From the NCBI GenBank assembly GCA_051294905.1, contig CM119371.1, forward strand, positions 13,580,001 to 13,644,000: DNA of 64,000 bases. Direction: 5' to 3'. Shown in pieces: positions 12,675-47,527 of this stretch. A program made the position numbers and the translations under genes. Positions within the stretch are counted from its first letter, which is position 1, and each line of letters begins with the position of its first letter. This DNA comes from Botryllus schlosseri. Taxonomy: Eukaryota. The notes beneath the pieces are model-generated. The model made no database searches and had not been told where the DNA came from. It saw only the letters and a program-made list of their open reading frames with translations.

Positions 12675-12982
12675 ACGACTTGGCATCCAAAGCCGCATAT
12701 CTCCTCCAAAGTTTCAAGGACCAATTAAAGGAAGTTCTACCTCCAGCTGAAAAACTGGATCTTTTGACGTCCCTGCAAGAGGCTGACGATTTTGATGTTA
12801 TGAAAGATTATGCGACAGATCTCGACCTATCGCACAAGGCCATTACATCCGCCTCAATGAGCATGTTATGTTCGTTGATTGGAAGATGCAGTACCATGAA
12901 ATCACTTACTCTCCGTAATTGCGGTATCGACAAGGATCTATTACTCGTTCTGGCCAATAGAACAGGGGATCTGCATATTAAG
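12675..12982 (+). CDS. NLR-like/LRR gene, first exon visible in the window (post-NACHT helical segment plus first LRRs)
   Basis: acag| acceptor (phase 1) and AAG|gtaacg donor (phase 0). Encodes ...AEKLDLLTSLQEADD...TDLDLSHKAITSASMSMLCSLIGRCSTMKSLTLRNCGIDKDLLLVL..., an RI-like LRR preceded by an LxLLxxLxE motif like that after the NACHT domain of NLRs. No NACHT domain is present in the window. Confidence 0.75.
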
Positions 12983-12994
12983 GTAACGTTATAC

Positions 12995-13100
12995 TAGGGT
13001 TGCCATACGTCCGGATTTTCCCAGACAAGTCCGGAATTTCACTGGTCAAACTGCATCCGGGGGGTAATTTCAAAATACGCCTAGTCCGGAATTTTGAAAG
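12995..13100. mobile_element. Left end of a TAGGGTTGCCATACGTCC hAT-like element
   Basis: tagggttgccatacgtccgg with tccgg subterminal repeats. A matching right-end type is seen at 44596-44693, but without a shared TSD. Confidence 0.6.
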
Positions 13101-13386
13101 CATTAATTAGGATGAAATTTGTTTTCGTAAATCAACTTAACCAATATTATTTTTAAGAAGATTTATGATACTTGGAAATTTATTCGCGCGTTGTTTCAAG
13201 TTTAATATAGAACCGCCGCCCTCACAACGAATGCAACAAAAAAAAAACATTATATACTGAAATAAGTCTAATTGTAATCGAATTTTAAGAGAACGGTGTA
13301 TTCATAGATTCGGTTAAGGCCGTTTGAATGATTTGGTCAAAAACAGTGGTTCATACATGAGTGCCGAACCTCGGTATGCTAAATAT

Positions 13387-14385
13387 TAGGGATGGTGTGA
13401 ACCTCTGAAAGGTTCAGGTTCGTGTGAACGCGAACCTTTTTGAAAGGTTCTGTGTGAACACGAACGTGAACCTCGTGACGTCACGTGACGTCATATTGCT
13501 AATTCCAACCCTATCTTCCAATGAAGTGATAGCCTATATTAATGTACACGATATCTAGCGAAGACTGGTCCACATAATGTCACAATGCTGAAGTACAAAT
13601 CGGCGTTTTAAACGTCGCTAAATGTATCAACAGCGGTAATCAAAGGATATAATAATTGCGTAAAATCAATACATTCCGTCGATTTGCCAACAATTTCGAC
13701 GAGGACTTACCAAGGAATATAAGCTTACGCCTTAACGGTCTTAGCCAGACCAGACAATGTGTTCGGAGTCTGAGTATTGCTACATTGATATGGAGCAGAG
13801 TGTACAACGGGTTTCAATACTCGCTACCGATACCACAAACAACAACAAGTTATGCAGCAGTAGCAAGCACCTTAATCGCACGGATTTGGTTTTAATGATA
13901 CAGTAAAGATATGAAGTCAAGATTGACCCCGTACGCCCGTTCGATTTTTTACATCAGAAGACGATATCAATGTCATTGATTGGTTGAATAAGCATCATTC
14001 GCTGACTACGTATATCGCTCGTGATGTTGTGTGATTGCGGGTCAAGCTCACAGCAGATAGTCACTAAATATTCACAAACGGAAAGCTGGTTATTCCGAGA
14101 AAATTTTTGCAACAAAGCAACAAAAACTTTTAAGGTTGTCGAGGTGCATGGTGCATGCTCGTTAAGCGTTGATTTTTTATGCTGCCGCAGCACCATGCAT
14201 GGAGTGGCCCGCAGTTGAAATGCAATAAATTTGAGCCAAAGATCTTATAATGGAGTGAAAATTACAATTTACCAAAAGGTTCACAGTGCAGAACCTACCA
14301 AGGTTCTGTTGTGAACACGAACCTCTAAATTTCCGAGGTTCACACACAGAACGCGAACGTGAACCTCACGTTCACACCATCCCTA
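13387..14385. mobile_element. hAT-like MITE, GTGAAC family, copy 1
   Basis: TIR tagggatggtgtgaac / gttcacaccatcccta. TSD ctaaatat at 13379-13386 and 14386-14393. Confidence 0.95.
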
Positions 14386-15340
14386 CTAAATATGCCTGTG
14401 AATATTGTGGGTATTCGGCATACCCGCAATTTCATCATCAGCACAACCTTGTTGGTCAATTGTGCGGTTGGAGAGGGGATAAAAACCTGATTTCGTTGCA
14501 CATGTAGATATGACGAGCACGAGCCGAGAAATTCCATCTCATCGTTGCTATGAATCGGATCAGCACATACTCGTTCTTTCGTGATCGTTTTTTAATCAGG
14601 TCGCGAAATTGGACAGTGTTATTGTGTATGCAATTATGCATGCGAATTGGAATTCATTCCTGCGCATGATCGTCATTCACTTCAGTGAGGATTTTCGAGC
14701 GTAAATAGGGGATGGCAGAAGAGTAGCCCAAAACGCCGTTACACTCAGCAAAAAATTGTCGCGGTGCGAGCTACTCGATGTGATGAAAGGACCCCATGGT
14801 ATTTCATGTTGGAGACTATGAATTACTGATTTGATACGCGATTTCCAATTTGTAATCATCTGTTTCGTAAATTCATTCTGGATGTCTGCTTGATATTTAG
14901 TATTCCCGGATTATCGCGCACTGTGACTTGTAAGTGTGCATTGTGCAATGTGCATACTGCATAGTTTAATTCGTTATGGGCATGGCGCAGTGTTTAATTC
15001 GATTCGTTTAAGCGGGAAAATATTATATTGCGATAAACTTGATCGACACCGGATGGACTAGTAACGAGTGCGCCAATACCGAACGTCAAACCAGTGGCCA
15101 TTTCAACAATTTGATACAAATAGAATTTCTATTGATGAGGTCGTGATATCAGCCCATATTGCTCTTACTACAGTTACAGTTGAATAATACACAGCAATGG
15201 CATGGAGTAAAGTGCGTTCTAGTGCAACTAAGTTGTTATCGACAATTGACAAGTATTCATAATGACGTCACAAGCCGGCACGGCGGCACCTATGTCTTCG
15301 TTGCTGCATCCGATGTTACTATGTTACTGGCAGTTGGCAG

Positions 15341-15400
15341 ACTCTTGATTACTATAGATAACTCTTGATTACTATAGATAACTCTTGATTACTATAGATA
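15341..15400. repeat. Perfect 20-bp tandem triplication
   Basis: actcttgattactatagata x3. Confidence 0.95.
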
Positions 15401-16117: not shown

Positions 16118-16146
16118 AAATAGACAGAAACCTTCGATAGTTTTCA

Positions 16147-16282
16147 GAGCCGGAGCCGGAGCTGGAGCCGGAGCAGTGATAATAATGCGGCGCCGGAGCT
16201 GGAGCCGGAGCTATTGTATGATAGAAGAAAGCTCCGGAGCCGGAGCTGGAGCAATGCAAATTTACGACTGCTCCAAAGCCCT
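16147..16282. repeat. (GGAGCC)n array, right end of another hAT-like element
   Basis: Repeated ggagcc/ggagct ending in ctccaaagccctg. Confidence 0.7.
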
Positions 16283-18515
16283 GCCCACAACAGGTCAACA
16301 CGATCGACTTGACATCTCAGACTTTGAATACGACAACGTAAAAGACTGCAATACCTTATCCACGGCGGATATCAGATTCAAGCTCTTGAACAATCGCTCA
16401 CTTACACTTATGCATTTCGATATTGTTTCACTTTCCAGCCATTATGATGACTTTAGTGACATCATCTTCCAGTTGGACTCAATCCGCAGTATCATTGGTA
16501 TCTCTGAAACCAGACTGCCAGAGTGTCCCCCAACCAATATAGACCTCGATGGGTACTCATTTTTTCCCTCCCCATCTCCCCCCAGAGCAGGGGGTGTAGC
16601 CTTATATATCAAAACCTATTTACGATCCTATATAGTGGATTCTTATAAGTTGAATATTCCTGGCACTGACCAAGTATGGGTCGAAATTGACTCTGCTATA
16701 ACCAGTGGCCACAGCATCATAGTAGCAGTAATCTATCGACATCCCAAGTCATCTAGAACAGACTTTGTCATGGCTCTTGATCAATCTATCAGGAAGTTAT
16801 GCGCTGATAAGAAAACATTTTTCATCCTTGGGGATATAAATATCAACATTCTATCCCAATCTGCTTTTGAAAAAGACTATTCATTCATGCTAAACTCGCT
16901 AGGCACTGTTCCTATTATTACGCAGCCCACTCGTGTGACACACCATTCTGCTACTCTTATAGATCATATTTACACTAATCTCGATTCATATACAATATTT
17001 CCTTATGTTATGGAAAATGACCTCACTGATCATTACCCACTTGTTGCTGAAGTTCTAGTTAAATCGCCTGCAACTAATGCCACCAAGGTGTATAGAAGAT
17101 TCCCAACACTTGAATCGCGAGACTCACTGTTGCACGATGCATTTGACAAATTTGATAATGATAACTTTACCCCCTCTCGAGACACAACTTCAATGAGCAT
17201 ATTGCATTTGATAAATGAGCACATTCCTCTTCAAAAATTGTCACGAAGGCAGCGAAAGCTGCAATTTAAACCATGGATTACTTATGGCATCGTACGCTCT
17301 ATTAAAAAGAGAAATCTCTTGCATAAAACATGGTCCCTGAGTGGAACTGAGGGTGATAGAAAAAACATCAGTCATATGCCAATAAATTGAATCACATCAA
17401 ATCAAAAGCAAAGGAGTCATATTATATGAATTGCTTCAGCAATCATTATGGAGATCAAAGGCAAACTTGGCGTTTGATCAAACAGTTAATTAATGTAAAA
17501 CGTACTAATACAAATTTTCCACTTAATATCATCAAAGACGATGGCACCAAGATTAGTGACCCTTGGAGTATCTCACAATCACTCAATGAACATTTTGTTT
17601 CCATATGTGACAAGTTGGCCTCTTCTTGTGCCAATTACACTGATATATCCCCAGTGGCTTACTGCAGGTCAAGCTTAGATTACTTTTTTATAACTGACAC
17701 AAGTGAGGAAGAGATCTATGAAATAGTTAGAGATATAAAAACGGGAAAGGCTGAGGGTCATGATAGAATTTCTACCGAATTACTAAAAACTCTCATTCCT
17801 GCAATTGGGCCCACATTAGCGTATTATTGCAACCAATGTGTAGAATTGGCCATTTTCCCAGCTGCTTTAAAAATAGCCAAAATTACTCCTGTTCACAAAT
17901 CCAGAGCTAAAACTGACATGAATAATTTCAGGCCTATCTCAGTCCTTCCGTGTATTGCTATTTTATTTGAGAAACTCATCTATAAAAGAATGGTGACATT
18001 CTTTGAACGAAATCCCCTGATATCGAGCAGCCAATTTGGCTTTCGACACAACACCAACACAAATCAAGCCATCACTGATCTCATTACTAAACTCTAGGCT
18101 CTAACGATGTCTGCTGCAGTATATTTTTAGATTTGAAAAAAGCTTTTGACACGGTCAACCATTCTTTATTGCTTGAAAAATTACAGCGTTACGGTATAAG
18201 AGGTAAATCTCTGGAACGATTTCGTTCCTATCTTTCAAACCGCTTACAGTACATTGACCATCACATGACGTCTTCCTTTCAATAATCGAGACCGGTGTTC
18301 CCCAAGGCTCAACTTTAGGTCCAATTCTTTTTATAATGTACATCAATGATCTGCCAAATGCATCAAAGTTCCACACGACTCTCTTTGCAGACGATACGTG
18401 CTTATTTTCCCGCGATTCTGACCTAGCTTCTCTCCAGCATACAGTCCACTCTGAAATGGAAAACATTATCACTTGGATGAATGTCAACAAACTAGTAATT
18501 AGGGATGGTGTGAAC

Positions 18516-20065
18516 CAGAGTTGGATCAATTACATTATTTCAGTTCAATTACAATTACAATTACAATTACTTTCATGAATGTTTCAATTACATTACAATT
18601 ACAATTACTCCATGCTAAAAATATCAAATTACAATTACAATTACAATTACTCCTTGCATGCTTCAATTACATTACAATTACAATTACAATTGCTGCTGTT
18701 GAACATGTAATTGAATAATCATAAATTCAACCGTGCTCCTTGACAACCGTAGCGTCGTATTTAGCAACAATTCAAGTCTAGTTCAGATTGTGTAGTAATA
18801 AATGCGTTTATGTGCGTACATAGTATGCTATGTAAGATGTCATTGTGACGTAATATAAGCGTGTTTTGTATGCTCGGTAATTATGGCTCACGTAATTGGA
18901 AATGTAAAATGTTATTTACCTAATTTTCTATGGGTTAGGATTAAGGATAGGGTGCAGTATGTCGTTGAAAAAGTATTATAATATATGCACGTGTTGGATT
19001 TGCGTATATAGCATATAATTAAAGAAATAATATTATTTTTATCGAGGGACGTAGGAATTAGGATGAGGGGTAAAAACAAAACCGTGCTTTGTCAGATAAG
19101 ACGTTGGTCTGGTTAGTTAGCCAGACGAAATAACGATGCAGCATCGTGATCTGAAATCGTATTGTGGATTGCCAACCCACGGATAGATGCGCAAAATGTG
19201 AGTCACGGATGAATGCACCGACAAACGTACCGCAGAGCCGGCTAGAAGCAGCAAACTTTGTAGTCCTAGAGCTGGCGATCCATGCGTCCAAATTTGATGC
19301 ATCTGGTCTTTATCGTAATCTATTGATGTACTAATTCCGAAAATACAAAATAAAATCTCGTCAGGGCAATGTAACTGCTCCAAAATAGCCGTTTAAGGCC
19401 GACTGTTCTGAAAAGTGAGAGCGCTGCAGCAGCATGACCACAACAATTACCAATTATGCCCAGCGATTGTTCAGAACAATGCCGATTCCCAGACTTTCAC
19501 GACTATTTTGGGATGGTGCCATTGCCTGGAAATATACTTTTATTGCGGAATCAGTGCGACACTGGCTTTCGATTAGGAACATACATATCAAATTTCGACG
19601 TTTGGATCGCCAGCTATGGTACTATCAATTCTGCTGCTTTTAGCCGGCTCAGCAGTTGGCTTTTCGGCGTATTCAATCGTGAGCCACGTGTTGCGAATCC
19701 ATCCGTTGGTTAGTAATCTAAGAATTGTATACAATGGCAGCCGAGGCCAGCATAGCGGTAAAAATAAAAAAAACTTCGCCCGAAAGGGCGCAGTCAAGGG
19801 CTTCCGCGAATGGATCCACCAAATTCCTTGTCGACATTTAAAGAGAATGCATTATAAGTCAATTATTTTATGTTGTGCTTGTCCGGTCTCAATAGCAATT
19901 TAATGTAATTGAAATTGTAATTGAGCAAATTTTTTGTCAAATTACAATTACAATTACAATTACACAAAATAAAAATGCTTCAATTACAATTACATTACAA
20001 TTACATTGAAAAATGTAATTACTTACATTCAATTACAATTACAAATTACAATTGATCCAACTCTG
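18516..20065. mobile_element. hAT-like element with (ATTACA)n arrays, nested at the left TIR of GTGAAC copy 2
   Basis: TIR cagagttggatcaatt / aattgatccaactctg. TSD gtgtgaac at 18508-18515 and 20066-20073. Confidence 0.95.
19170..19720. mobile_element. Long-TIR (foldback-type) MITE of the TATAGATAACTAACC family, nested
   Basis: aacccacggatagatgcgca...ctggcgatcca...aaatttgat (19174-19298) is inverted at about 19588-19710, ending ggttagtaatcta. Related to 46492-47074. Confidence 0.7.
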
Positions 20066-22293
20066 GTGTGAACCTCTGAAAGGTCCAGGTTCGTGTGAAC
20101 GCGAACCTTTTTGAAAGGTTCTGTGTAAACCCGAACTTGAACCTCATGACGTCACGTGACGTCATATTGCTACTTTCAACTCTACATTTCAGTGAAGTAA
20201 ATAGCCTATATTAATGAACAGTGTACAGTACATGATACCTAGCGACGACTCGCGCCACATAATGTCACAATGCTTAAGTACATATTGACGTTTTAAACGT
20301 CGCCAAATCATTGCTACGTTGATATCGATCAGAATGTAAAACGGGTTTTGTATTTGGTACCGACATCACCCCATTAACAAGTGATACAGCAGTAGCCAAC
20401 AACCCAACCGCACGGATTTTGTTTTTATGACGATTAACTTATGAAGTCAAGATTGACCCAGTACGCCTGCTAGATTTTTTACATCAGAAAACGATATCAA
20501 TTTCATCAATTGGCTGAATAAGCATCATTCGCTGACTACAGCAGTGAGTCACTAAATATTCACAAACGGAAAGCTGGATATTTCGTACAAATTTTTGTAA
20601 CAAAGCAAGTAAAATTTTTGAGATTGTCAAGGTGCATGCTCGTTGTTGTGGATTTTTTACGCTGCCAGGGCCATGCAATGAATGTCGTACAAAGATGTTA
20701 TAATGAAGTGAAAATTGTAATATATGAAATAGGTTCACAGTGCAGAACCTATTAAGGTTCGTTTGTGAACGTGAACCTCTCAATTTCTGAGGTTCACACA
20801 CAGAACGCGAGTGTGAGCCTCACGTTCATACCATCCCTACTAGTAATAAACCCTTCCAAAACTCAGCTGTTGATTAGCAACAATAAGGCCCCGCCCACAC
20901 ACACGCCCACTTTTGCAATAACTATGCATGGCGTCACTGTGAAACCAACCGCCACTGTGAAATATCTAGGGATACACATTGAAAATGATATGTCTTGGAG
21001 ATCCCATATCGAATTGTTAGTGTCGAAAGTTTCTCGTTCTTGTGGTGTGCTGTCACGGGTTTCTCGTTTACTTCCCAGATCAGTTCTAAGAACTCTATAC
21101 TTTTCCATAATTCATCCTCACCTGTTATATGCTATTATTTTTTGGGCACAACTTTCAAAACGTACTTGCATGCCTTATCAGTGCAACAAAATAGAGCCAT
21201 GCGCTCAATATGCCGTCTAGGGCCACGGGATAGTGTTCAGCAAGCATACAGATCCCTCAACATAATAACAGTTCCTAAAATGTGCTCTTTATAAATCGCA
21301 AAGTGGATGCATAGATACCATAATGACAATATTTCCGATGCATTGTTAGGCCTATTTCTTCTCCAAAAAGACGTCCATATTTATAATACCAGGTCTGCTT
21401 CTTCTAACAACTACTTTATCCCACGTGTGTCTTCAATGGCTCAAAGATCCATTGTCTTTTTAGGACCAAAACTATGGTGTGAGATTTCAACTGAATTAAA
21501 AAATATGTCATTTAACGAATTTAAATATCATTATAAAAAGCAGCTCTGGCAATCATAACCTGATCGCTATTGTTTAGTTTCTTCATTCTCATACCATTGA
21601 GAGTTTGGTACCGTTTGTACTGTTTACTTGTTATTTTACCAACTGTTTAGTTACTACTTGTTATTATATAGCTAGATTGACAGCATTGATATGCCCAATC
21701 ATTAATTATAGATATACATATTATATGGGTTATGTGTAATTGGTATTGCATGTTGGCCTATATATGACTGTCTGTTTAATGTATGAGGTGACCAGCTGAC
21801 TTGAAGACCGAATGGTCGTATCGCTGGCCACCATTTCATAGCATTACTTTCTTACACCTGGAAATAAACTTCTGTCTGTCTGTCTCTCTGTCCCCTGCAA
21901 TAGTGGCCGGATGAAATCGTCGGGCGCTTCACTACATTTTATACGTCAACATCCACAAACTAAGGAACTATTTCAGTAGTGACACAAGTTCAGTATTTGG
22001 GTATTCATTTTATCCGTTTGATATAGGCATCTGGTATCTGGTCGTGCCGGCGCGAACAATTGTTGAAGTTCACGAGTAAATTCCGTCAGAAGTATTGGTT
22101 CGTAGATATGTTCCTACTAAATTTTTATCATTTCTGTGTCACGTGATCATCAGAGTTAGCGGTAAAGTGGTGGTGGTGGTCATGACTTCGAAAATGCATG
22201 CACGTGATTGTACATCACTAAGTTTTGTTCATTTCACACGGATAAGACTATTTATGATCCTAAATGCCGGTCCGCACCAGTACGTTGCTTATC

Positions 22294-22813: not shown

Positions 22814-22930
22814 ATTGAGGAACTCGATCTCAGAGGTAACATATATTGGACTGATCTTGATGTTTGGAAACGTGGACTACGACATCTGGAGATCGCTACG
22901 TTGGTCATCGATGCCCCCTGCGACGAACAG
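22814..22930 (+). CDS. NLR-like/LRR gene exon (phase 0-0)
   Basis: aaag|ATT...CAG|gtatag, 117 nt. Encodes IEELDLRGNIYWTDLDVWKRGLRHLEIATLVIDAPCDEQ, a canonical LxxLxLxxN LRR. Confidence 0.8.
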
Positions 22931-22996: not shown

Positions 22997-23143
22997 AACC
23001 AGACTACTGCCGAACATCTCCTCCGTGTGTTAGATGCATCAAAGCCTTCGGTTAGGCATTTCATCATTGACCAAATCAAGAGCATTCGATTGGATATCAA
23101 AGACGTTGAATCACTCAGCAAGTTTGATTTGAGTCAGACATGG
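22997..23143 (+). CDS. NLR-like/LRR gene exon (phase 0-0); alternative acceptor possible at 23003
   Basis: Follows a 66-nt intron. tttag|AACCAG...TGG|gtacgc, encoding NQTTAEHLLRVLDASKPSVRHFIIDQIKSIRLDIKDVESLSKFDLSQTW. Confidence 0.65.
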
Positions 23144-23619: not shown

Positions 23620-23854
23620 ATCAACCATCTCTCGGTAAAACCTGACGTCTAGACATTTCATATTGACATTTGGCGAAAAGCATTTGATGATATTTCATTT
23701 AATGTGTCTCATTGCCTAGTCGAGCAGCCAAAACAACACGTAATATCAAAGAAATAGCATCGCAATGAGAAATATATAACCATTCACTTCCACATATACC
23801 AAAATGGGAAGATCGATGTGAAAAGTTGGACCGATGCAGCAAAAGCTACTAATG
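23620..23854 (+). pseudogene. Dead paralogous exon (homologous to exon 35640-35972)
   Basis: tttcag| acceptor, then INHLSVKPDV*TFHIDIWRKAFDDISFNVSHCLVEQPKQHVISKK*HRNEKYITIHFHIYQNGKIDVKSWTDAAKATN. In-frame TAGs at 23650 and 23755; truncated by a hAT terminus at 23855. Confidence 0.7.
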
Positions 23855-26362
23855 CAGTGGTTCCCAACCTTTTTCGTCTCATGGGCCTCTTGGCCGATAT
23901 TTGAGCTAAAATTCCCCCCCACGAAAAAGTTGCCTGTGACTAAAAAAGGTGCTTTTTAACGCAAAACCATTTGTTGACTGAGCAATTAATGGCGAAACAT
24001 ATTCAGATATGTCTGAACTATATCGAATGCGAATCGCACTACACTTTGGTAAAGTATACAGTCAAATGTGACCTGTTTTTTACTGGTCAGGTAGCCGCTG
24101 AAGAAATATAAATCACCAAGTCGGCTTGCTATGGCCTTCAGTTGAATCGATGAATTTGGTATGTTTTTCAAGTTAGCTCATATGTTCGCTTAAAAAGTTT
24201 AAGAATTTCACCAGCGGCCTTGTGCTGAATTCGGCTCAACTTTTTCCTGCTTAGTAGCAGGGTTGTAATGACTCGAGTCATGACTCGACTTGAGTCAGAC
24301 TCGTGTAACGATTTTCTGATGACTCGACTTGACTCTGGTCATTCTGTCAAAATGCGGAAATGACTTGACTCGACTTGAACTCGAGCCATTGCGCATCACT
24401 CGAACCAAGTCATATGACTCGAGACTCAGACGGCTAAGACCGACATTTCATTATAATTTCGGAAAACAGTAAAGTAACCTCGCTTTTGAGATTGCGTCTA
24501 TTGGTACTGGTACTTTAAAATGCGACCAGAAACTGTTTAAAGTGAGAAAATTTAGTATATTATAAATGCGAACCATTCGATATCATCAAACAGAGTTATA
24601 AAAGTGGGTCTAACAAAACTTTAACTCAGTGGTTCCCAACCGAGAGAATTCCCCCCTTGGGGGGAATTTTGAATTTTTTAGGGGGGAATCTGGCTTTTTA
24701 TCGGAAGATACACTGGGTTCGCAAGTCGTTTACATTTTTATGGTATAGAACTGTTAAGTTGAAATTAGTTCTTCACAACTGTACGTTTCTTTGGCGGATT
24801 TTAAGATAGGTGTATGTTACACCGATACCTGATACACCCCCTGATAAAGTGAGGCTCGCGAGACGATTTCGTCGGGCCCGCGACCACTTCTGGACCAAAT
24901 TGCTACTAAGCAGGGTTCAACCAAGTCACAAAGCTCTGAGTCACAAGTCAACATCACTTTATAGTTGTGACTCATCAAGTCAAGTCGAATCATTTTCAAT
25001 TCACCACCGAGTCCAGTCCGAGTCCAAGTCATCGAGCAGATGATCGAGTCCAAGTCATGGTATTATGAATCTAGTCCGAGTCCACGTCATTGTGTTGACT
25101 GCTCAGTTTTCAGTTAAAGCAGTGGTTCCCAACCTTTTTCGTCTCATGGCCCCCTTGGCCGATATTTGAGCTAAAATTCCCCCCCCCCCCACGAAAAAGT
25201 TGCCAGTGACTAGAAAAGGTGCTTTTTAACGCAAACCATTTGTTGACCGAGCAATTAATGGCGAAACATATTCAGATATGTCTGAACTATATCGAATGCG
25301 AATCGCCCTACACCTTGGTAAAGTATACAGTCAAATGTGACCTGTTTTTTAGTGGTCAGGTAGCCGCTGAAGAAATATAAATCACCAAGTCCGCTTGCTA
25401 TGGCCTTCAGTTGAATCGATGAATTTGGTATGTTTTTCACGTTAGCTCATATGTTGGCTTAAAAAGTTAAAGAATTTCACCAGCGGCCTTGTGCTGAATT
25501 CGGCTTCACTTTTTCCTGCTTAATAGCAGGATTGTAATGACTCGAGTCATGACTCGACTTGAGTCAGACTCGTGTAACGATTTTCTGATGACTCGACTTG
25601 ACTCTGGTCATTTTGTCAAAATGCGGAAATGACTCGACTCGACTTGAACTCGAGCCATTGCGCATGAATCGAGACTCAGTCGGCCAACACCGACATTTCA
25701 TTATAATTTCGGAAAACAGTAAAGTAACCTCCCTTTTGGGATTGTGTCTATTGGTACTGGTACTTCAAAATGCGACCAGAAACTGTTTAAAGTGAGAAAA
25801 TTAGTATATTATAAATGCGAACCATTCGATATCATCAAACAGAGTTATAAAAGTGGGTCTAACAAGACTTTAACTGGAAACTGAGCAGTCAACACAATGA
25901 CGCGGACTCAGACTCTAGTCATAATAGCATGACTTGGACTCGATCATCTGCTCGATGACTTGGACTCGGACTTGACTCGGTGGTGAATTGAAAATGATTC
26001 GACTTGACTTGATGAGTCACAACTATAAAGTGATGTTGACTTGGGACTCAGCGCTTTGTGACTTGGTTAAACCCTGCTTAGTATCAATTTGGTCCAGAGG
26101 TGGTCGCGGGCCCAACGAAATCGTCTCGTGAGCCTCACTTTATCAGGGGGCGTAACAGGTATCGGTGTAACATACACCTATCTTTAAATCCGCCAAAGAA
26201 ACGTACAATTGTGAAGAACTAATTTCAACTTAACAGTTCTATACCATAAAAATGTAAAAACCTTGCGAACCTAGTGTATCTTCCGATAAAAAGCCAGATT
26301 CCCCCCTAAAAAATTCAAAATTCTCCCCAAGGGGGGAATTCACCCCCGGTTGGGAACCACTG
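23855..26362. mobile_element. Rearranged tandem pair of a composite hAT element (A, B-inverted, A, B)
   Basis: cagtggttcccaacc at 23855, 24627 and 25120; ggttgggaaccactg ending 26362. 23855-24626 matches 25120-25875 directly, and 24627-25119 is the reverse complement of 25868-26362. Contains a nested GACTC-array element with TSD cttagtag. Confidence 0.9.
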
Positions 26363-35639: not shown

Positions 35640-35972
35640 ATCAAAGATCTTTGGGTACAACTTCCGCCTGGATCTTTGGATTCTGAGTGGCTTCAAACAA
35701 TTCAGCGGATTCGATGGAGTGTGACTCATTGCTACGTCCTGCCTCCTCAGCGCGCTTACGTAATATTTCGCGAAAGGTCACTTAACATTCGCAGATTTTT
35801 TGATCGTGACACTCCATGTTATGTGGATGTGGATGTGAAGAAATGGCTTGAAGCAGCGAAGATGTTGAATGAAGTGGATGTCGTGAAAAAAGTGAAGTTG
35901 TACTCGGATGCTAATATCGCAGTTGGAATTGACGATATTAAATTAATCGTTGAGTCAAGATGCCTTGGAAAG
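35640..35972 (+). CDS. NLR-like/LRR gene exon (phase 0-0)
   Basis: ttctag|ATC...AAG|gtacag, 333 nt open. Encodes IKDLWVQLPPGSLDSEWLQTIQRIRWSVTHCYVLPPQ...VDVKKWLEAAKMLNEVDVVKKVKLYSD...RCLGK. Confidence 0.7.
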
Positions 35973-36039
35973 GTACAGAAAATATTTTTTTCGTCTTATA
36001 ATATGGGTAAATATTAGTAGAATTAATTTGCATGCAGAA

Positions 36040-36600: not shown

Positions 36601-36679
36601 GTATAGAAACGTACCTCATGTATCTGTCACTTTCGCTATCCTTTTCGACCAGGGTGGCGTAATCAAAATCGGTTCAAAC

Positions 36680-37639: not shown

Positions 37640-38135
37640 GTTCAAACCATTAAAACAAACCGGTCGGTGGTGCCGAGCGGGTGACAAAGTAGCTATGGAG
37701 TGTGGCAACGGCTCAAAGATACCGCGTCGGTAAACCGTTTCGCGGTCATTGTTTATAATCATAGTGACAAAAAACAAACGAAATTGCGTTAAGTAAATAT
37801 ATATATACATTATACGACCCCTTAATTGTGATTGTGAAGTACGAGCTGCAACCGAAATCTGACAAGGTATTGTGACAACTAAGAAGTTGATATTTTGATT
37901 CGGCCCTATTCAACGTTGGTTTACCGTTCTAGGGATAGCTTGCAGCTAGCTCTTTTGTCAATCGCGACAGGCACATTCGTATATTTTTATCTTCGAGAGG
38001 CAGTGCTGTCAGAGAAAAAGCACCTATATACGTTCCATAATATCGCAGAGGAATATTTCTCACGCGCGCGAAGAAATCTAAGGAAACATAGGTTGGGTGA
38101 AACACTTCAAAAATTCGACAACTTTACATCATAAC

Positions 38136-39161
38136 TAGGGCCATTTTTATATGACCTTAAAAAATCAAATATATGACTTTATTTTTGGGAAAATATGACT
38201 TTATATGACTTTATGCGAATATCGTGTATTTTTACATGTAACCAACGTCACTCATGGAACTGACGGGTAAAACATGAACAACAAAACAGTAATACGCATC
38301 CATTTTTATTTTAAACCACTGTTGTAGTACAGTTTCATGTAGTGTGGAATGTTGGAGTCTTTAAAGGTACGATTTGGACGTAAAAATGACTTTAGTAAGG
38401 AAAATGAGCGCTCCACAGACCCTGATGTTGGTTGACACATCAGCAGTTTTGCATACAGCGCTGGTGAAATGTCTTGTCTTTGTAGCTCCATAATTTGTTT
38501 CACATCGTTTTTGTCCAATCGTTTAATGTCATTTTTGAGCTCAAGCGGATATTTTCCGAATTCGATGGCATTTAGATCAGCATGAGCCTCTTTGATAATG
38601 TACGTACAACTTTCCACTTTCACTATCAAGTTTGAAATATTGTTATAGTGGAGGCATATTTCTGTTAACTCGTCAATTTTGGATCGTTCACTGAATCTTT
38701 GACGCTAGCTCTTTACAATAACTCCTTCAGCTTCCCATGCTTTGAATATTTCTTTCACTTGTGGAAGTCTCTGAACTTCAAATGACGTCCCACTTCAGTG
38801 CACAGAAGTAAAACAGATTGTGTAGCAACACAATGGAATGTGTGACCTCATATTGCAATGTGTGACCTCGTAGGTCTGCGACTGTAATGTTATATAGGCT
38901 AACCTAACAGTTTGCCTTCGTTCAATCAGAAATTGCCTTACTTTCTTAGTGCGTAATTGCTTCAATTGACACTTTTTATTTAAAGTATACAACAATATGA
39001 CTTTATAACTCAAATATGACCCAACCAGGAAAATATGACTTTATATGACTTTATAACTTTCTTAATATACCCATATGGATGCGGTTTTTGCGTTAAGATT
39101 GATTTCACGACTTACTGATGCATAGAAAAAAATATGACTTTAATGACTTTAAATGGCCCTA
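38136..39161 (-). mobile_element. Internally deleted hAT element retaining the transposase C-terminus
   Basis: TIR tagggccattt / aaatggcccta, ATATGACTT subterminal repeats, and degenerate TSD atcataac / atcatgat. ORF 38306..38629 has the hAT dimerisation motif PTSGSVERSFS. Confidence 0.85.
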
Positions 39162-40352
39162 ATCATGATCATAATACTGTTTCGTTATTAATGCGTCACA
39201 ATAAAGATCCTGCAACTCAATTTGACATTCCACTACGACCGATTCCACGCTAACACTCACTGGTGCAACAAAAGAACAAATTATTCTCCCCGAGTTAAAA
39301 AATCTTGAAATCCTGACCCGAGTTCAAGATGTTGTTCAGAGATGATTTTATCTGTGTATTGCTTCATATTCTTGATACCCATCATTTTTAATGATCGAAG
39401 AGATTGAAAATGGACCAGCGGGTTATAGGTTGGTGATCCTCACATTATTGCGAGCATAACAGATATACATAATTGGGCGAAGCCATGGATCGAACTCTTT
39501 TATTATTTGTTTGTAACACTGCCGTGTACGAAATCATCATCAGGCACAATAATAATAATATGGCTATAGGTAACATTCAGAATTGGTACAGGAGAAGGCT
39601 TACATCACAATTACAAGTTTCGCTTTCGATGAAGTCCGTATACTTCGAAAAATGTTCAAGTTTGTTTTATCAGTTGTGATAAAATCTTCTATCTCGACCA
39701 TACGGTTGTATCTACTCTGAATCTACTTGTAAACTGTCTTCCCGTCTTTACAATTTTGAGTGTAAATCAGAATTATTTCCGGCCTATCAAATCAGTTCCA
39801 TACACTGATTGCATGTACACGTAAAATCAGGTAATTTGTTCTAATTGAGGGTGGTAACGCGCGATTTTGACGATTTTATCAAATGAGCAATTTCCCGTGG
39901 TCACTGGTCAGTGATCACTAGAGCTTGTGCGCCGAATATGTAGGCTACTCAACTTTCGAATTTACGGTACCACTTGATCTCTACACACGGGAGTTGATTT
40001 AGTGATTCCCGGCAGTAATAACTTGGCGAACATTTAAAGATTTCGAATATCGCCTTGAATCACAATTGGCGACTTAACAATTGTCATCAGCATTCGCGGA
40101 CTTAAAAAACTTCGTGGGTCTCATGCGGCCTGTGTGCCAGCCTGCCAGGGTTAGTCTACTGAATGCAAATATTGGAGTGGTTCAGGTCAGGGCCACCATT
40201 CTGGGATTCACATCATAAAATATTTATAAAATAATATTTATAAAGGACTTCGCAGATAAGTGATTGTGATTATATGTGTTTTCGTTACGATCGTATGTAA
40301 TTGCACTCTTTTAGTTTTCTGGTGACTGATAACTACGTTCTTCCGGTTATAG

Positions 40353-40517
40353 GTGGGCAGACTAACAATCACGGATTCTCGAGCTCTTTCACCGGAAAAC
40401 CTGAATGAATTAGGTAGAATGATAAATATATTCGATGTTCGATACATTCTCCTTCTCACCGGTAGTCCCATGTTTCCTCTTTCATTGAAAGCCATCCAGG
40501 TTCCTGCTAAAATGAAG
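40353..40517 (+). CDS. NLR-like/LRR gene exon (phase 0-0)
   Basis: tatag|GTG...AAG|gtcagt, 165 nt. Encodes VGRLTITDSRALSPENLNELGRMINIFDVRYILLLTG...AKMK (degenerate RI-like LRR). Confidence 0.7.
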
Positions 40518-41067
40518 GTCAGTAAATTTGCTATAAAGGGAGTGATGTAGGTACCATATTTTTGTGGCTCAAATTTTGGACACTCTTTGGCACCTACTAG
40601 CGGGTTTTACAATGAGGTATGAACACATTGTCTGTCAATACGACGCTTTATCTATCGACTGCACAGGAGTGAAGTGGAACGTGGGTATTGAATTGGGCTT
40701 TCTCTAATATGAGCTATGGTGATTGCTAGGGTCTGCAGCAGATTTCTTCGTGAGCCGGAGGAAATCGCCAGTCGTGTGTTTGAAAGTCATGCTGTTAGGT
40801 CGGATCGGTTATCTGGTTGTATGTTATAATCAGGTCCGAATCTACATTTTCAGCCCTTTCTTCTCTCCCCCTAAAACAAAAACTGATCTTAGGTCCACCA
40901 TAAAGTAATCGATGTCACTTCTTGGGGCTTACTATATGCATATGTTTGGTAAATTTTGTGAATAAATGATGTCAATAATATTGGTTTTTCCATGTATTAT
41001 TATACAATTCACCAGCAGATTGCACATGTTCGCGACCTCATTTCCAATTTGAAAATGTTCCGTGGCC

Positions 41068-42023
41068 CAGTGTTGGGATCAAGTCACTACCTTCGAGTCA
41101 CGAGTCCTTTCGAGTCATTGTACATTTTGACTCGAGTCAACTCAAGTCAATCGATTTTCGAAGGTGACTCGAGTCAAGTCAAGTCACTCGAATTTTGGAG
41201 GTCACTCGAGTCAAGTCGAGTCAAGTCAAGTCACGAGTCAAGTCACAATTCAAGTCAAGTTGCCTTTTCGAAGTATAAGGCATGCTTACGTCATTGCATT
41301 TTGCTAGCTGTCTGAAATACAGATTATGTGGTAATTGATTCTGGACCTATGAACGAATATAGAGCTAAATATAAACGCAAGGAAGGCGCTTTATTGCTAA
41401 CATATACGTAGAAATGCTTAACTACGTAAGTAATTGCATGACCTCGGATTATAGTTACCAGCCAAAATAGAGAATAGAGAAACGAATTGATAAGATGCAA
41501 TACATTACCCATTTACAAATTGATATGATACAATCCCATCCTGCGACGATGGTTGAGGACTACATAAGCTATATTGGAGTTCAATTTCAATAAAACAATA
41601 GGTTTGGCTAAGTTAAGAACAGAGAACAGAAATCGACATTTTGCTATTAAATTACTTTACTATACTAGTTTACGACAACGTAAGATGTAAGCTTCGATCA
41701 CTTGGTTTGCGAACAATTTATTTGTGAGAGAATAATGGAGGCTCAGTAAAACGCACGATCATTGAATGATTGGTCGCTCTCATGGGTTAGCCTACACCAG
41801 CCTATCGCGTACAGTCCGAACATATGCAAGATGCAATTTTTATCGACATCGATTGCTTGATGACTCGAAATTGACTCGTGAATTTTGCTCCGAGTCACGA
41901 GTCAATCCACATTTTTGATACGCCAACTCAATTCAAGTCAAGTCATTATAACAAAGTGACTCGAGTCAAGTCAAGTCGTACGAAAAAGGTGACTCGAGTC
42001 TGACTCGAGTCATGCCAACACTG
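41068..42023. mobile_element. hAT-like MITE, CAAGT/GACTCGAGTC family, copy 1
   Basis: cagtgttggg / gccaacactg termini. TSD ccgtggcc at 41060-41067 and 42024-42031. Confidence 0.95.
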
Positions 42024-42659
42024 CCGTGGCCCCCCAGCTCAGTAATTGACAAGCAGATTATATTATAAGTGGTCAGCTTGCCCGGACTTACTCACGGCCT
42101 ATTTTGGAAGCTGACTACGTTCAACATCTTCGCGATCCCAAAAATAAAGGCAAGCTACCCCTAGGTTTAGAATAACTAGGCCTGGTGACATGTTCGACTC
42201 GACTTGAGGTTAACTCGTCTCCAGTGACGGTACGCGACGTCTCCGAGCAGACTCGCAAAAGCGCCCTGTTTACATGATCCTTGTATTGGTCAGGTTTTAC
42301 TGTGGACGACCGTGCTTCGCTATTACCTATTAATACAATATGTATTCGCAGTAAGTCTGGTGGTGGATAGTGGGCAATGAGCAAGGTCCCTCGACAATGT
42401 GTTTCGTCCAACCGGAAACGTGTCTTACCTCGGAATTGACGAGGAGATATACTGCTAATATTTGTCGGGGAAAACGATATTGTTTGGGCGATGCCTATAG
42501 CTAGGAAAACGTTTTGATTTTATAGGCAGCACATGCTGATGCGATGCGAATAAAAAAAGGTAATCAACACTTAAGTCACACGATTGTAAACCGCATGTCA
42601 CCCCTTGGTTAAAAAGGTTGTTCCCCTGTGTAAAAATACTTCCTTGTAGAGATGATGAC

Positions 42660-43174
42660 TAGGGCTGGGCAAAATCGAGTACCCGAGTGATTCGATTCTG
42701 AATCAAGTATTATGCTTCGAATCGAGTTGAGTATTCAAGTATCACTCATTATGACGTCACATCAAAATGTAATATGTCACAGTTCAAATATGTACCTTTC
42801 GTGCCACCACAAAGAATATAATGCCTGTTATCCATCACACTGAAGATACTTTGGTATTTCTTCGACCCTACTAGCGATTTTATTGCAGTTTGCGACAATG
42901 TTGTGGGTGGATCATGACTTCGGAAATATTTTTCCAGCAACGGTCGTAGCCCTGTACTATATGTTTCGTATGATGCGATACGGCCAATCAGTTTCAAGGC
43001 TTCCACAGTGGAAAATAGTATCGAAACCATAATTATCGTTGATAAAATAACTTTCGGTAACGAGAAGCGTATAATTTTAGTACTCGAAAAATACGACTTT
43101 TGCTACTCGACTCGAATCATTAAAATAATTACTCGATTCAGATTCGAGTACTCGAATCATTGTGCCCTGCCCTA
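42660..43174. mobile_element. hAT-like MITE with TACTCG/GAATC arrays
   Basis: tagggctgggca / tgccctgcccta termini. TSD atgatgac / ctgatgac (7 of 8). Confidence 0.85.
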
Positions 43175-43989
43175 CTGATGACTTTGATACAGCAAGGGCT
43201 GCAGAGACTTTATGAAAGCACCTGGTCACCAAGGCGGCAAGATACCAATCAGAAACTTAACAATACGAGTAATGTATATTATAGGCAACCTGTCATGAAA
43301 GGCCATATAGATCACTGCTACTAAACTACTCCCCACAAATTCATTACTTAAGAAGTGCCTATAAAAGCACTCACAAAACAATCACATATGCTACCATGAA
43401 TACAAACTAAAAAACAGTAGCATCAAAACTGGCAAGCTTAAAATCGTGAACACTGAGCACTCGCACGACCGCATCACATCAACAGAACATTAATCCACAA
43501 TTAAAACAAAGTAGTCATCCCTGGACTAAAACATTAACACCGCCGCGCTGCATCAACACCAGCAGAGATACAAACCTCCGTATCGTATTCATATCATCTT
43601 CTCGAGAGAGTCACAAGCTACACTCTTTCGCACACGCCCCCACGACAGTTCCGCCAGTTAAACAGTCTCTGTGAAGTGAATCAATCCATCATGTCTTCAA
43701 ATTTCCCATATCGATGCACAGCCGGTTCTTCAATCGGTTCAGGTAACCCTATTGCATGTCACAGTCAACTTCCGACCAATCTTCACACACCAGTACATCC
43801 CAAAAGTCTTCCGAACTGTAGTCTGTAGAAAAGGAACATTTTATCGTGCTCTCAATTGTCAGAGACATTGGTATGTGCCTGATGACTCACGACACAACAA
43901 CTGCTGCAGAGACGTCACTGCCGGACTAAAGAGTAGGTTAACACCATAGGGAATCGCTGGTACTGTCATTATTGTCAATATCGAGCACG

Positions 43990-44290
43990 GCTGCTACACA
44001 TGTACTGTTGTATTACCTGTATACCATAATGAGCATTTGTTCAATTTCAACGTAACCCCACTATCTCTTACCATATTTGCCCGATTTCCCCACAACATAT
44101 GAAAAACACGAATGACGATGCCATGAACCTCCGCAGCAAAACCAGTGTCGGAGGTCGAAAAGCGCCGAGTACTTAAACCGTTAGAAAACCACCTTACACA
44201 ACAGCTTGAAGCTCGAGTCGGCTTCAGGCAGTTTGCGTTTTTCTCTTCATCGAATACGAGATAGTAGGATCGACGGGTCAGCTTCAAATC
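43990..44290 (-). pseudogene. Possible highly decayed Gypsy-type RT fragment
   Basis: ORF 43994..44287 has KLTRRSYYLVFDEE (cf. KLDLxxGYxQLxLDEE), FAAEVH (cf. SAxEIFH) and GVTLKLNKC (cf. GLTLNxxKC) in the expected order, but no YxDD. Confidence 0.3.
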
Positions 44291-44595
44291 TGACTAAAAC
44301 CACCATGTAAATGCATGGGCCTACTGTCACTAAAGCATCCAGGCTTAACCAACTCTAGGAATATGCCATTATCTTGTATTTGCGATTACAATAAGATATT
44401 TTCAGTAAATGACGGTTATATTTATTCATTTCAGATTGCATGTTTTGCGACGGCTGTGGTCCCCATAATACATTAAATTACATTATATCCCGCACAGCGC
44501 GAAGGGAATTACTAGTAGCGTAAATCTGGTTAACAATAATAATTTTAATGTTGATTTACGAAAACAATTTGAGCCTACTTCAAGCCTTTAAAATT

Positions 44596-44693
44596 CCGGA
44601 CATTCGGTCATATTTTGGAATTTCCTCCCGGACACAGTTTTTACAGTGAAATGCCTGACATGTCCGGGAAATTCCGACCGTATGGCAACCCTA
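44596..44693. mobile_element. Right end of a TAGGGTTGCCATAC hAT-like element
   Basis: tccgg repeats then cgtatggcaacccta. Confidence 0.6.
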
Positions 44694-44727
44694 GCGTGAA
44701 GTAACTGAATTACATTGCTTTATTCAG

Positions 44728-44811
44728 ACCCGGGAATTCCATATCGTTACTGGAGGTGACGTGGAAAAGCTGGAATTTTTCATGTATCAGATAACTGATT
44801 CACCTGAGAAG
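44728..44811 (+). CDS. NLR-like/LRR gene exon (phase 0-0)
   Basis: ttcag|ACC...AAG|gtatta, 84 nt = 28 codons (typical RI-LRR unit length). Encodes TREFHIVTGGDVEKLEFFMYQITDSPEK. Confidence 0.6.
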
Positions 44812-45725
44812 GTATTAAATGAAAATAGTAACTTACATTTTAACTTCTCTTCAAAATTGCAGACCACAGTAGTCACAGTACATCCGCAGAATTTCATAAT
44901 TATGGTTTATATCGAATGTCACTGAGATAGATTGCGAAACAATTTACATTATGAGTCAATGGAAACATGGAATCTTTTCGTCTACCTATTGTAAATTCTC
45001 AACAGTCTATTAGGGCGAGAAAAATAGCAATTTTAAAACGAAATCGATTTGATCAAGGATGACATACCTAATTAGAAACAGAGTGTAAACGTCAAAACTA
45101 TCGCCCATGATTGGTCTTCTCAGATTGTATATCAAACATTATGTGTAGCTCAAGAGGGGTTAATGTACAACATGTGTTATAGAGATATTCAACTTTTTGG
45201 AGTCTCAGTTTGGTTCAAGCGACACTCCTTTCATTTATTATGACTGGTTGTAGCGGTATTATATTGGCAGACGAGGGCAAGCCGTAGCTGTTTTATATGT
45301 GATGCTGCTGCTAATGGAATTAAATACATCGAAAACGTAAATTAAGAAAGAATCCAATACTGAAAAGATTAGTATTGATTACGACGTGACCACCTCTAAG
45401 TTGACGGCTTCAGAATGCTATGCGAAATAGAATACTCAATGACATGAAAATACGACGGAAAATTCAACTCGGAGTCACGAGTCATTTAATATTCCTCCAA
45501 TTTGGAGTCCAAGTCCAAGCTGTGTGACGAACAAAAGTAATCCAGGTCACCCAACGCTGTTGTTGATGCAGGATTCATCGTGAAACGCATTCTGTCTTGA
45601 GGACGATGAATATTACTGCGCATCATCTATAATCTTGTTGAATTTAGACTTATGTTATTCAGTTTCATTACCGACCGCACTCGGATAAGTTTTCCTGAAT
45701 CGGACTATCAATAATGCCTTTGCAG

Positions 45726-45893
45726 ATAACATATCTTACTCTGAAGCTGTCGATCACAAGAAATCTCCCAGGCATTGCATTCGAGATCGGACAGTTCATT
45801 GCTAAATACTCTTTTAAAGTTTTAGTCTTCAAAAATATATGGCTTGACGAACTAGTCGGAAAGAAGGTGAAATTGGGATTGAACGGTTACCAG
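45726..45893 (+). CDS. NLR-like/LRR gene exon (phase 0-0)
   Basis: ttgcag|ATA...CAG|gtaagg, 168 nt = 2x28 codons. Encodes ITYLTLKLSITRNLPGIAFEIGQFIAKYSFKVLVFKNIWLDELVGKKVKLGLNGYQ. Confidence 0.7.
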
Positions 45894-46491
45894 GTAAGGT
45901 AATTTTTTATGCCAATGTCCATCGTAGACTGACTTGTATGCCAAACTATAACTGGGATAAACCACTAGGACATCGAAGTTTTCCGCCAAATGGTGACGAT
46001 CATAATATTTAGAGATTACTTTGTATATATAAAAACACCCAATTGAGCGGTATGGTCAGAAATGCGACGTAGCTGAAACAATTTCAGTTGCGGCTTCATA
46101 GTCCACTTCCCCATCGTCCGTAATGAATCCTAACTACAAACCCATGACAGTCAGTACACAGGATACACAGATCCACCATGAGATTGGACTGATAGTTGGC
46201 GTTGATTAAATGGGCATCATGTAAATATGATTTGGTGTCAAATTACATATTAAATTGAGGAAAAATGTTGGTAGCAACCATTTTCCGCGCAGTGGGTTTT
46301 GGATCGATGACGCTATAGAGATAAGCTGGAATCGAAAGTACCAGTCGTGAAAATTCTTCACCTGCAGTTTGAATAAGGTGGCTTCGTGAGGAAATGGATG
46401 CTGTTAATAATTTTTCTCACTTTTTTTTAGTTTGAGACCACGTCATATTAAGAACGCGATGCCCCTAAATGCTGTATTTCTGGCATCGAAC

Positions 46492-47074
46492 TATAGATAA
46501 CTAACCTACGGATAGATGCGCATCACGTGATTCACGGTCGAGTGATGCCACAGTCGCAGATTTGTTGTCGCTTCAGAGCATGAAACGGCAACGTAATTGC
46601 TAATCCCATAGATGACGACCCGATCGCTCAAATTTAATAAAATTGATCTTATTTGAAAGCTACAGTCGCGCTAATTCTGATAATATACATCAAAATCTGA
46701 TCAGGGCAAAGGAACCGCCTCGAAATACCCCTCAAAGTCTGAAAATCGGAATTGTTCTGAACAATCGCAACCACGCAATGACCATTGTTGTGGTCATTGT
46801 GCTGCATCGTTGCGATTGTTTAGAACAATGCCGATTTTCAGACTTTGAAGGCTATTTCGGGGTGGTTCCATTGCCTTGATGAAAATTTAATGTATATTAT
46901 CAGAATCAGCGCGACTGTAGCTTTCGAATAATATCAACGTTAATAAATTTGAGCGCTCGGGTCGTCATCTATGGGATATGTTTCACGCTATGAAGCGACA
47001 ACAAATCTGCGCATGTAGCATCACTCGGCCGTGAATCACGTGATGCGCATCTATTCGTACGTTAGTTATCTATA
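46492..47074. mobile_element. Palindromic long-TIR MITE (TATAGATAACTAACC family)
   Basis: tatagataactaacctacggatagatgcgcatcacgtgattcacgg is mirrored at the right end. Inverted similarity continues inward almost to the centre (about 46785). Confidence 0.9.
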
Positions 47075-47458
47075 GTCGAACAGTGGCACGGTGATATAAT
47101 ACTAGATATTGCTCACTCTCCTAAGCATGGGAATTGAGTATTAATTTCTAGTCGGATCACAGCTGAAGTCCAAAACAACTGGTAAAATCCTACCATGAGG
47201 TCACTATCAATATAGGAACTAATTTGTTGTTTTTCTAATTATCATGTATCGGTAATAGGGCTACCTGACTAACCTCTTCTACATTTCATTGATCATAAGT
47301 TAATAATGTAATTTTCGCTAAAACGAATACTTCGGAGTAGTTTGGTAACTCTCGATAAGTTTGAATAAAAAACTTCTTGCACTCGAACTCTATAGAAACA
47401 ATTACGACTGTCGCTACCCTTAAAGTACTGAATCTATTGCTCTTCGATTTTGTCACAG

Positions 47459-47527
47459 GTTGAATGGAAGGTCGCTGATTACATCTGCTTCGATTCAGAG
47501 TCTTCGAAGACTTCAGAGTCTTCGTAG
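47459..47527 (+). CDS. Probable terminal coding exon of the NLR-like/LRR gene
   Basis: gtcacag| acceptor. Phase-0 reading gives VEWKVADYICFDSESSKTSESS* (TAG 47525-47527). Confidence 0.5.
   Translation, partial: VEWKVADYICFDSESSKTSESS

Follow-up and report, generated by a model that had tools for sequence, protein, structure and literature searches.

How the expanded NLR families of invertebrate chordates, animals without antibodies, come to diversify is an open question, and one locus in the ascidian Botryllus schlosseri poses it directly: do eight short exons, strung over 35 kb of sequence, belong to an NLR gene, and does their uniform intron phase make them a system for generating receptor diversity? 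The locus lies in a stretch of 64,000 nucleotides (hereafter the window; C1:13580001-13644000, C1 being contig CM119371.1 of assembly GCA_051294905.1), in which the exons span positions 12675-47527 of the + strand. The assembly searched comprises 495.5 Mb, and exon coordinates are window positions unless prefixed. An earlier note on this DNA had seen here a hidden NLR-like gene and a candidate exon-shuffling or alternative-splicing system. We consider it probable, though well short of certain, that the exons form the 3′ part of a working ascidian NACHT-LRR gene (LRR, leucine-rich repeat), a short and eroded copy with a cassette-built tail.

All eight exons could be reconstructed with AG and GT ends and joined in frame without an internal stop, and each of the seven downstream introns proved to be in phase 0. 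The five strand motifs on which exons had been said to open (IEELDL, IKDLWV, VGRLTI, TREFHI and ITYLTL) all lie at AG acceptors of the + strand (22814, 35640, 40353, 44728 and 45726), so that an LRR strand motif opens five of the seven downstream exons but not the remaining two. The count of eight exons stands, but a dead exon pair had been missed, and the 111-codon exon corresponds to two ancestral exons together with a 63-nt intron. The introns are indeed filled with pieces of long interspersed nuclear elements (LINEs) and DNA transposons, at least 41% of the span being repeat. All eight exons are free of repeats, and this 0% overlap ruled out E3-E6 as transposon pieces. Splice-site matrices derived solely from 78 exons of sister genes (the subfamily described below) were then used to score open phase-0 frames of 25-62 codons within window 13000-64000. 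Among the 182 candidates that did not overlap one another, the exons at 45726, 22814, 44728 and 40353 came out at ranks 1, 3, 4 and 5 (hypergeometric probability ~6e-7). Because of these top ranks, the distal exons without a homolog (E4-E6) are very unlikely to be chance open frames. Within the first cassette, the intron between exons A and B measures 66 nt and has an in-frame stop before exon B, and AATAAA occurs at 48182 and 48285, beyond the putative last exon. The eight exons are the genuine tail of an NLR gene.

The head of that gene lies outside the window. As the earlier note had expected, an upstream NACHT exon can splice into the acceptor at 12675: an intact exon of 467 codons with a compatible phase-1 donor is present at C1:13575559-13576959 (5559-6959 of the upstream stretch, L086), ending 3 kb 5′ of the window. 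This exon matches PF05729 (E 1.9e-17, 64.1 bits against a cut-off of 26.7), carries intact Walker A and B motifs (GQPGSGKT and FFDGLDQ) and has NLRP7, NLRP3 and NLRP2 among its PDB matches. A winged helix (NOD2_WH, PF17779) scores 23.3 bits against a cut-off of 23.1, and the helical domain is seen in an alignment of the E1 profile with NLRP3 residues 625-683. A further exon of 78 nt (26 codons, phase 1-1, strong sites) stands 388 nt 5′ of the NACHT exon, at L086:5093-5170, and joining these two exons to the eight of the tail gives 955 codons with a single terminal stop. NLRs are described in PMC9505182 as combining a nucleotide-binding domain with LRRs, and large invertebrate expansions are listed there. 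With Walker motifs, winged helix and proximal LRRs in the same gene model, the tail does belong to an NLR, and the gene is one by definition as far as NACHT and proximal LRRs go.

Table 1. Exons and exon remnants of the gene tail, in window positions.
Feature	Position	Strand	Remarks
E1, end of helical domain and first two RI-type (ribonuclease inhibitor-type) LRR strands	12675..12982	+	phase 1 in, 0 out
Cassette 1 exon A, 39 codons, opens on canonical LxxLxLxxN strand	22814..22930	+	sister homologs at E 1.5e-7 and weaker; splice rank 3/182
Cassette 1 exon B, 49 codons (47 from second acceptor 23003), weak donor	22997..23143	+	homologous sister exons
Dead cassette (pseudo-exon pair)	23620..23857	+	profile E 2e-15 (A) and 6e-5 (B)
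Cassette 3 as single 111-codon exon	35640..35972	+	profile E 1e-14 (A part) and 5e-18 (B part)
E4, 55 codons, probable degenerate two-repeat module	40353..40517	+	splice rank 5/182
E5, 28 codons, probable single degenerate repeat	44728..44811	+	splice rank 4/182
E6, 56 codons, probable degenerate two-repeat module	45726..45893	+	splice rank 1/182
Putative last coding exon, 22 codons and TAG	47459..47527	+	acceptor score 6.3 and frame only

The assembly contains at least 94 NACHT matches, and by NACHT identity the gene is a member of a 12-gene subfamily, with 11 sister genes at 49-57%; one further gene lies at 44%. For E1, the genome yields 44 matches, E1 itself among them. The best named relatives are NLRs of Styela clava (31-33% identity); the four Logan proteins found at 41-51% identity each consist of one NACHT exon and lack a tail, and a comparison of E1 with longer proteins yielded none among 481 candidates.

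The death-fold exon that had also been postulated upstream did not turn up, as no CARD or Death match occurs within C1:13.27-13.58 Mb (genome-wide matches: CARD 6, Death 124). The 124 Death matches are mostly near-identical open frames of ~100 codons, many of them arranged as inverted pairs ~5-24 kb apart (e.g. C4:20656892+/20667428-, C5:25440527-/25450416+ and C12:17220158-/17243607+), and look like a death-domain open reading frame carried by a family of mobile elements in their long terminal inverted repeats. Four close sister genes have a short NVIGGNQ-type motif on their 5′ side; for the present gene, none was found at up to one mismatch genome-wide or up to three mismatches in L086. At L086:4303-4447 there is a short ATG frame followed, after a same-frame stop, by a candidate exon of 35 nt (4413-4447) whose donor is phase 1. 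This is a possible but unproven N-terminal motif exon; it encodes NIVQVG, which we take to be reminiscent of RHIM cores. The Styela clava proteins P0001-P0010 have repetitive N-termini in which Asn, Ile, Val, Gly and Gln abound.

What kind of tail follows the NACHT exon was examined from the proximal end. The E1 profile matches ribonuclease inhibitor (E 7.6e-8), NLRP3 (1.9e-6) and NLRP1 (2.6e-6), and its predicted structure (pLDDT 78) runs helix-strand-helix-strand-helix, the top five Foldseek matches being LRR proteins or their complexes at E 0.1-0.5 (none at or below 0.001). An LRR_6 match at E ≤0.1 occurs in five of 30 E1-type exons. In E1, the tail begins as an ordinary RI-type LRR region.

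Behind E1, the middle of the tail is built from cassettes of ~90 residues, each comprising an exon A (39-41 codons as a rule) and an exon B (47-54 codons) separated by an intron of 52-111 nt. The statement that the distal repeats have drifted from the LRR consensus holds, since a scan of all exons but the one at 22997 gave Pfam LRR matches in none of seven. Cassette 1 retains the full LRR motif with its asparagine and is homologous to the later cassettes, which have lost that asparagine (hhalign probability 92%, P 5e-7). The cassette pattern consists of three hydrophobic-x-x-hydrophobic-x-hydrophobic strands ~30 residues apart with predicted helices between, A reading as strand-helix-strand and B as helix-strand-helix, or approximately three 30-residue repeats per pair. 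In ~34 comparisons with LRR modules of Styela clava, exon B of the cassette aligned weakly but in register (P 0.0036 and 0.0058), as did E6 with an atypical module (P 0.0034, uncorrected) and E4 (weak, P 0.05). A profile of the Styela modules, searched against 424 candidate loci in the window, placed five exons of this gene among its top 10 matches, none of them individually significant. An LRR origin of the cassette appears likely.

Could the cassettes and distal exons instead be a graft, a non-LRR repeat or domain added after the first LRRs? Such a graft would fit the cassette profiles, which found nothing significant among Pfam or PDB sequences (best E 0.69 and 0.086) and, among 1.84 billion representatives, yielded eight matches at E ≤0.001, namely five fragments of the same family and three unrelated repeat proteins. 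An atlas search with cassette 3 and E6 likewise gave leads that all scored below 0.9. Yet the full LxxLxLxxN of cassette 1 together with its homology to later cassettes, the spacing of three strand motifs per cassette with helices between them, and the concentration of this gene's exons at the top of the Styela profile search all speak for LRRs, and we regard a graft as very improbable. As for the distal exons themselves, E4 and E6 have no other copy in the genome (a word-based first look gave one candidate each, the exon itself), E5 showed no significant homology in the Pfam scan, sister loci and module comparisons, and the last exon at 47459 has no homolog in the fetched loci. More generally, no homologs of E4-E8 were seen in the fetched loci or in the 6 kb behind one sister gene's cassettes, and as far as these searches reach, E4-E6 would be private to this gene.

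The gene also carries a cassette that no longer works. Its exon A (23620-23739) has an in-frame TAG at codon 11, its 63-nt intron ends in AA instead of AG, and its exon B, starting at 23803, is interrupted after ~18 codons (55 nt) by a transposon-like insertion at 23855, beyond which the remainder of exon B was not found in the window. Because its identity to the nearest sister cassette (45%) is comparable to that of live cassette 3 (40%) and the codon-position pattern is kept, the cassette must have died recently. The end of the insertion is itself repeated, with several copies in the window. The interrupting element is present at window 23850-24626 and 25115-25875 (93% identity), and a second element, an inverted pair at 24627-25119 and 25868-26362, is interleaved with it.

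Cassette 3 departs from the rule in another way, as its A part (35640-35759) and B part (35823-35972) are separated by a 63-nt stretch that is open in frame, has AT at the acceptor position and retains a degenerate donor (-4.2, below all 41 sister A donors). Introns between A and B that are open and in frame are found in two of 37 sister cases. The simplest reading of this sequence would be a fixed read-through of the former intron, adding 21 residues between repeats, although other outcomes are conceivable, given cryptic sites that include a strong out-of-frame acceptor at 35794 (7.7). As to other in-frame introns within cassette 3, 48 GT-AG pairs were considered and none was strong at both sites (best 6.2+1.0 and 3.1+3.3).

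RNA data from four runs were mapped on 35300-48300 (6-13% of three raw runs were read, and repeats dominated). Contigs of run X1 reach two bins of cassette 3 (depth 0.75 and 3.9), and no RNA run was listed as containing E1, whose words are present at 0.37-0.43 in three runs of one study that were guessed to be RNA. Just 3′ of the last exon, the repeat at 47756-48044 reaches a depth in the thousands in the RNA runs; it would overlap the 3′ untranslated region and is probably a transcribed element, resembling a short interspersed nuclear element, from other loci.

Several of these observations count against a working gene with an LRR-derived tail. No start codon could be traced. Among the splice sites, the donor at 23144 is odd, and so are the two within cassette 3. 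In the RNA mapping, the bins that hold E4 and E6 show little or no coverage, and no exon-exon joint was seen among 15 displayed of 134, all 15 lying within repeats; with 6-13% of the three raw runs read, this is a weak test. The dead cassette shows so little decay that, on decay alone, a young pseudogene is compatible with it. That the cassette and E4-E6 are LRRs is no more than suggested, at P 0.003-0.05 in ~34 comparisons, in which two shuffled-column controls scored an artefactual 99.6%. Finally, the predicted structure of cassette 3 contains helices only (pLDDT 53, pTM 0.32, from an alignment of 33 mostly half-length rows), and this low-confidence model has no Foldseek match.

One rival reading is that the locus is a young pseudogene or a shortened gene, in which translation terminates early and the distal exons have fallen into disuse. 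Early termination could arise by read-through of the donor at 23144, with a stop 26 codons on, or by inclusion of dead exon A, with its stop at codon 11. The donor at 23144 is the weakest junction of the gene (family-matrix score -4.1, compared with 3.4-11.4 for 6/6 sister donors), dead exon A retains a good acceptor (6.0), two B-exon acceptors have been lost within this one gene, the out-of-frame acceptor at 35794 would yield a stop if used, and the X1 contigs that reach cassette 3 bins do not extend to those of E4 or E6. However, the weak donor sits at the homologous place and retains -1G, +3A and +5G, which are part of the general donor consensus, and E4-E6 keep top-ranking splice sites. 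Moreover, stop, lost acceptor and insertion all fall in one cassette, and the other 955 codons are open, free of stop and frameshift. We therefore judge a pseudogene or shortened gene unlikely, and return to the working gene as the favoured reading.

How such tails change is best seen in the sister genes, in which AG/GT ends and phase 0 were required of candidate exons in advance; with that requirement, all internal tail exons are phase 0-0, as in the present gene. Of the 41 A exons in the fetched sister stretches, 37 are followed within 200 nt by a B exon and another by a B-like match; for the other three, all of the first-cassette type, no B was detected. B exons open before a predicted helix, and A and B each seem to hold 1.5 repeats. 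Because A and B are paired (38/41) and each seemingly holds 1.5 repeats, the working unit is the exon pair. The number of cassettes, given as lower bounds, is at least nine in the gene at C1:11.58 Mb, six at 11.41 Mb and at 17.13 Mb, five at 12.49 Mb and four at C12:3.15 Mb; the present gene has two live cassettes and a dead one. In a tree of the 41 cassettes, whose deep nodes are weak, positional groups common to several genes occur next to groups expanded within genes.

One such expansion has left a visible trace. The gene at C1:11.41 Mb contains three units at intervals of 470 nt, of which the first two are alike even in their introns (98% and 88%). The middle unit is a mosaic that agrees with the third unit at 32/35 informative sites left of a break and with the first at 133/143 sites right of it (permutation test, 0/20000), and its switch of ancestry lies inside exon A. 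The mosaic is what unequal crossing-over of tandem copies leaves behind when the break falls within an exon, and not the mark of intron-mediated exon swapping. The prediction that units can be duplicated or lost without frameshift is thus borne out by the range of sister copy numbers and by the dead cassette here.

The companion claim, that any exon can be skipped, survives as far as the reading frame permits it, but not as a statement about single exons, as A and B are paired in 38/41 cases and the pair is the unit. This matters for the proposal that regulated or stochastic skipping of phase-0 exons yields many isoforms and a repertoire from one gene. The seven phase-0 introns would allow it, an LRR exon of human NLRP3 is skipped in ~1/3 of transcripts (PMC6642158), and the Styela clava isoforms P0009 and P0010 (one gene; predicted annotation models) differ in their number of 53-58-residue modules. 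Nevertheless, no skipping joint was seen in the low-coverage RNA mapping, the pairing of A and B means that skipping a single exon probably breaks the repeat register, and the gene offers few interchangeable parts, namely two live cassettes and the three exons private to it. The skipped NLRP3 form, moreover, is inactive and so represents an off switch instead of a new specificity (PMC6642158). A skipping-based repertoire is in our view quite improbable.

Selection was estimated from recent cassette copies in sister genes, in one set of 7 and another of 6. The nonsynonymous and synonymous rates (dN/dS) were 0.137/0.256 and 0.204/0.446 overall, and recent copies are under purifying selection overall. 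Diversifying selection, for which the earlier note had suggested looking, was not seen in these sister cassettes (the window exons having no close copy): at exposed strand positions, assigned by motif, dN/dS was 0.191/0.355 and 0.213/0.519, and variation was not enriched there (p 0.34 and 0.55).

Taken as a working gene, the locus would encode a protein with a short N-terminus, a NACHT ATPase, a helical domain and an LRR-derived solenoid, increasingly degenerate towards its C-terminal end, and by analogy with known NLRs this tail would restrain the ATPase and sense a ligand or perturbation. Because both introns of a cassette are in phase 0, whole cassettes can be gained or lost. Gain may proceed by unequal crossing-over of tandem copies, as evidenced in the sister gene, and loss by decay into pseudo-exons that would be spliced out in frame; here, a working gene requires splicing from 23143 to 35640 across the dead cassette, which phase 0 would permit. 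Variation would then consist of germ-line birth and death of cassettes, with the exon pair as the unit gained or lost. The all-phase-0 layout alone is no sign of a diversification system, since it is the norm of the family and has a vertebrate parallel.

A more far-reaching possibility, which we hold to be distinctly unlikely, is that the LRRs of the 12-gene subfamily have been rebuilt as a 90-residue repeat unrecognised by the searched libraries, and that its cassettes turn over, through tandem gains, mosaic formation by crossover, decay into pseudo-exons and read-through of introns, fast enough for sensor length and surface to vary from one individual to another. In that case, pair-wise skipping or a retained intron may add isoforms, and the dead cassette and lost acceptor could be polymorphic. 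If this were true, the locus would be a testable case of receptor repertoires differing between colonies.

Other elements surround the gene. The intron between the NACHT exon and E1 contains a 1.7 kb inverted duplicate (window 1-1699 and 7594-9285, 98% identity), each copy having an internal 243-bp inverted repeat, with a 202-bp satellite at 3220-5176 between the copies; this is possibly a foldback element. On the - strand, 28155-34810 is presumably a non-LTR (long terminal repeat) retrotransposon, broken by insertions, to which we assign gag-like zinc knuckles, an endonuclease, a reverse transcriptase and RNase H-like pieces, and 16119-21555 holds what we take to be further LINE fragments. 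An intact single-exon open reading frame of 763 codons at 61150-63438 (+) has no Pfam match over the cut-off and, we presume, resembles a DNA-transposon transposase. Upstream, 5′ of the NACHT exon, L086:480-2929 (-) presumably carries a hAT-like transposase fragment.

Among known systems, the closest are the Styela clava NLRs (P0001-P0010 and P0023-P0025, e.g. 'protein NLRC3-like' and 'uncharacterized protein LOC120339924'), whose NACHT and helical domain align with those of the present gene over ~555 residues at 29-31%. Their tails consist of 53-63-residue modules that open on an LRR strand and mostly end in Lys, as the exon borders do here, and no death-fold Pfam domain is listed for them. 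Unlike the tail described here, the Styela modules are two-repeat units that mostly retain the LRR asparagine, and the 90-residue two-exon cassette was not found in the Styela set. Ascidian NLRs more generally hold only NACHT-LRRs or NACHT, being 'NLRC' without an N-terminal death fold, according to the part of PMC11508797 at hand, and the lack of CARD or Death near this gene fits that description; exon structure, cassettes and a family of ~100 loci do not figure in that part of the text. Nor were exon cassettes of ascidian NLRs found in the literature searched, which left most subscription journals and all supplements outside, so that absence from print is not implied.

In vertebrates, the NLRP, NOD and NLRC genes and ribonuclease inhibitor have modular, frame-preserving LRR exons (Hoss et al. 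2019, PMC6642158). The present gene resembles them in having a single large NACHT exon and, behind it, short LRR exons that preserve the frame and have fixed borders, in sizes of 28 and 56/57 codons, and in allowing gain, loss or skipping of exons in frame. It differs in that the main unit is an exon pair of approximately three degenerate repeats instead of one or two whole canonical repeats per exon, in that copy number varies between sisters and a dead cassette is present, and in that PYD or CARD was not found. The vertebrate rule of whole repeats per exon with a fixed border does not hold for A and B, whereas E4-E6 (55, 28 and 56 codons) conform to it. Skipping has been demonstrated for NLRP3 (PMC6642158), whereas no skipping joint appeared here in low-coverage RNA. 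A second parallel is offered by the brown algal ROCO genes, candidate immune receptors whose LRR exons are shuffled, being duplicated and rearranged (Teng et al. 2024, PMC11378527). Copy-number change and recombination of repeat exons are common to those genes and this subfamily, but the algal proteins are ROCO GTPases with one LRR per exon, and the diversifying selection and alternative splicing reported for them (PMC11378527) were found neither in the sister cassettes nor in the low-coverage RNA, respectively.

For annotation, the locus is a warning, as such tails are invisible to Pfam and contain pseudo-exons. Together with its sisters, it displays several steps of germ-line turnover at once: unequal crossing-over, a mosaic, the death of a cassette in an apparently intact gene, and the conversion of an intron into coding sequence. 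The frame-preserving LRR exon design was already known from other systems; the present subfamily is a lineage-specific variant of it, with a two-exon unit of approximately three repeats that turns over in copy number, and what it adds to them is the loss side of the cassette cycle and a crossover mosaic.

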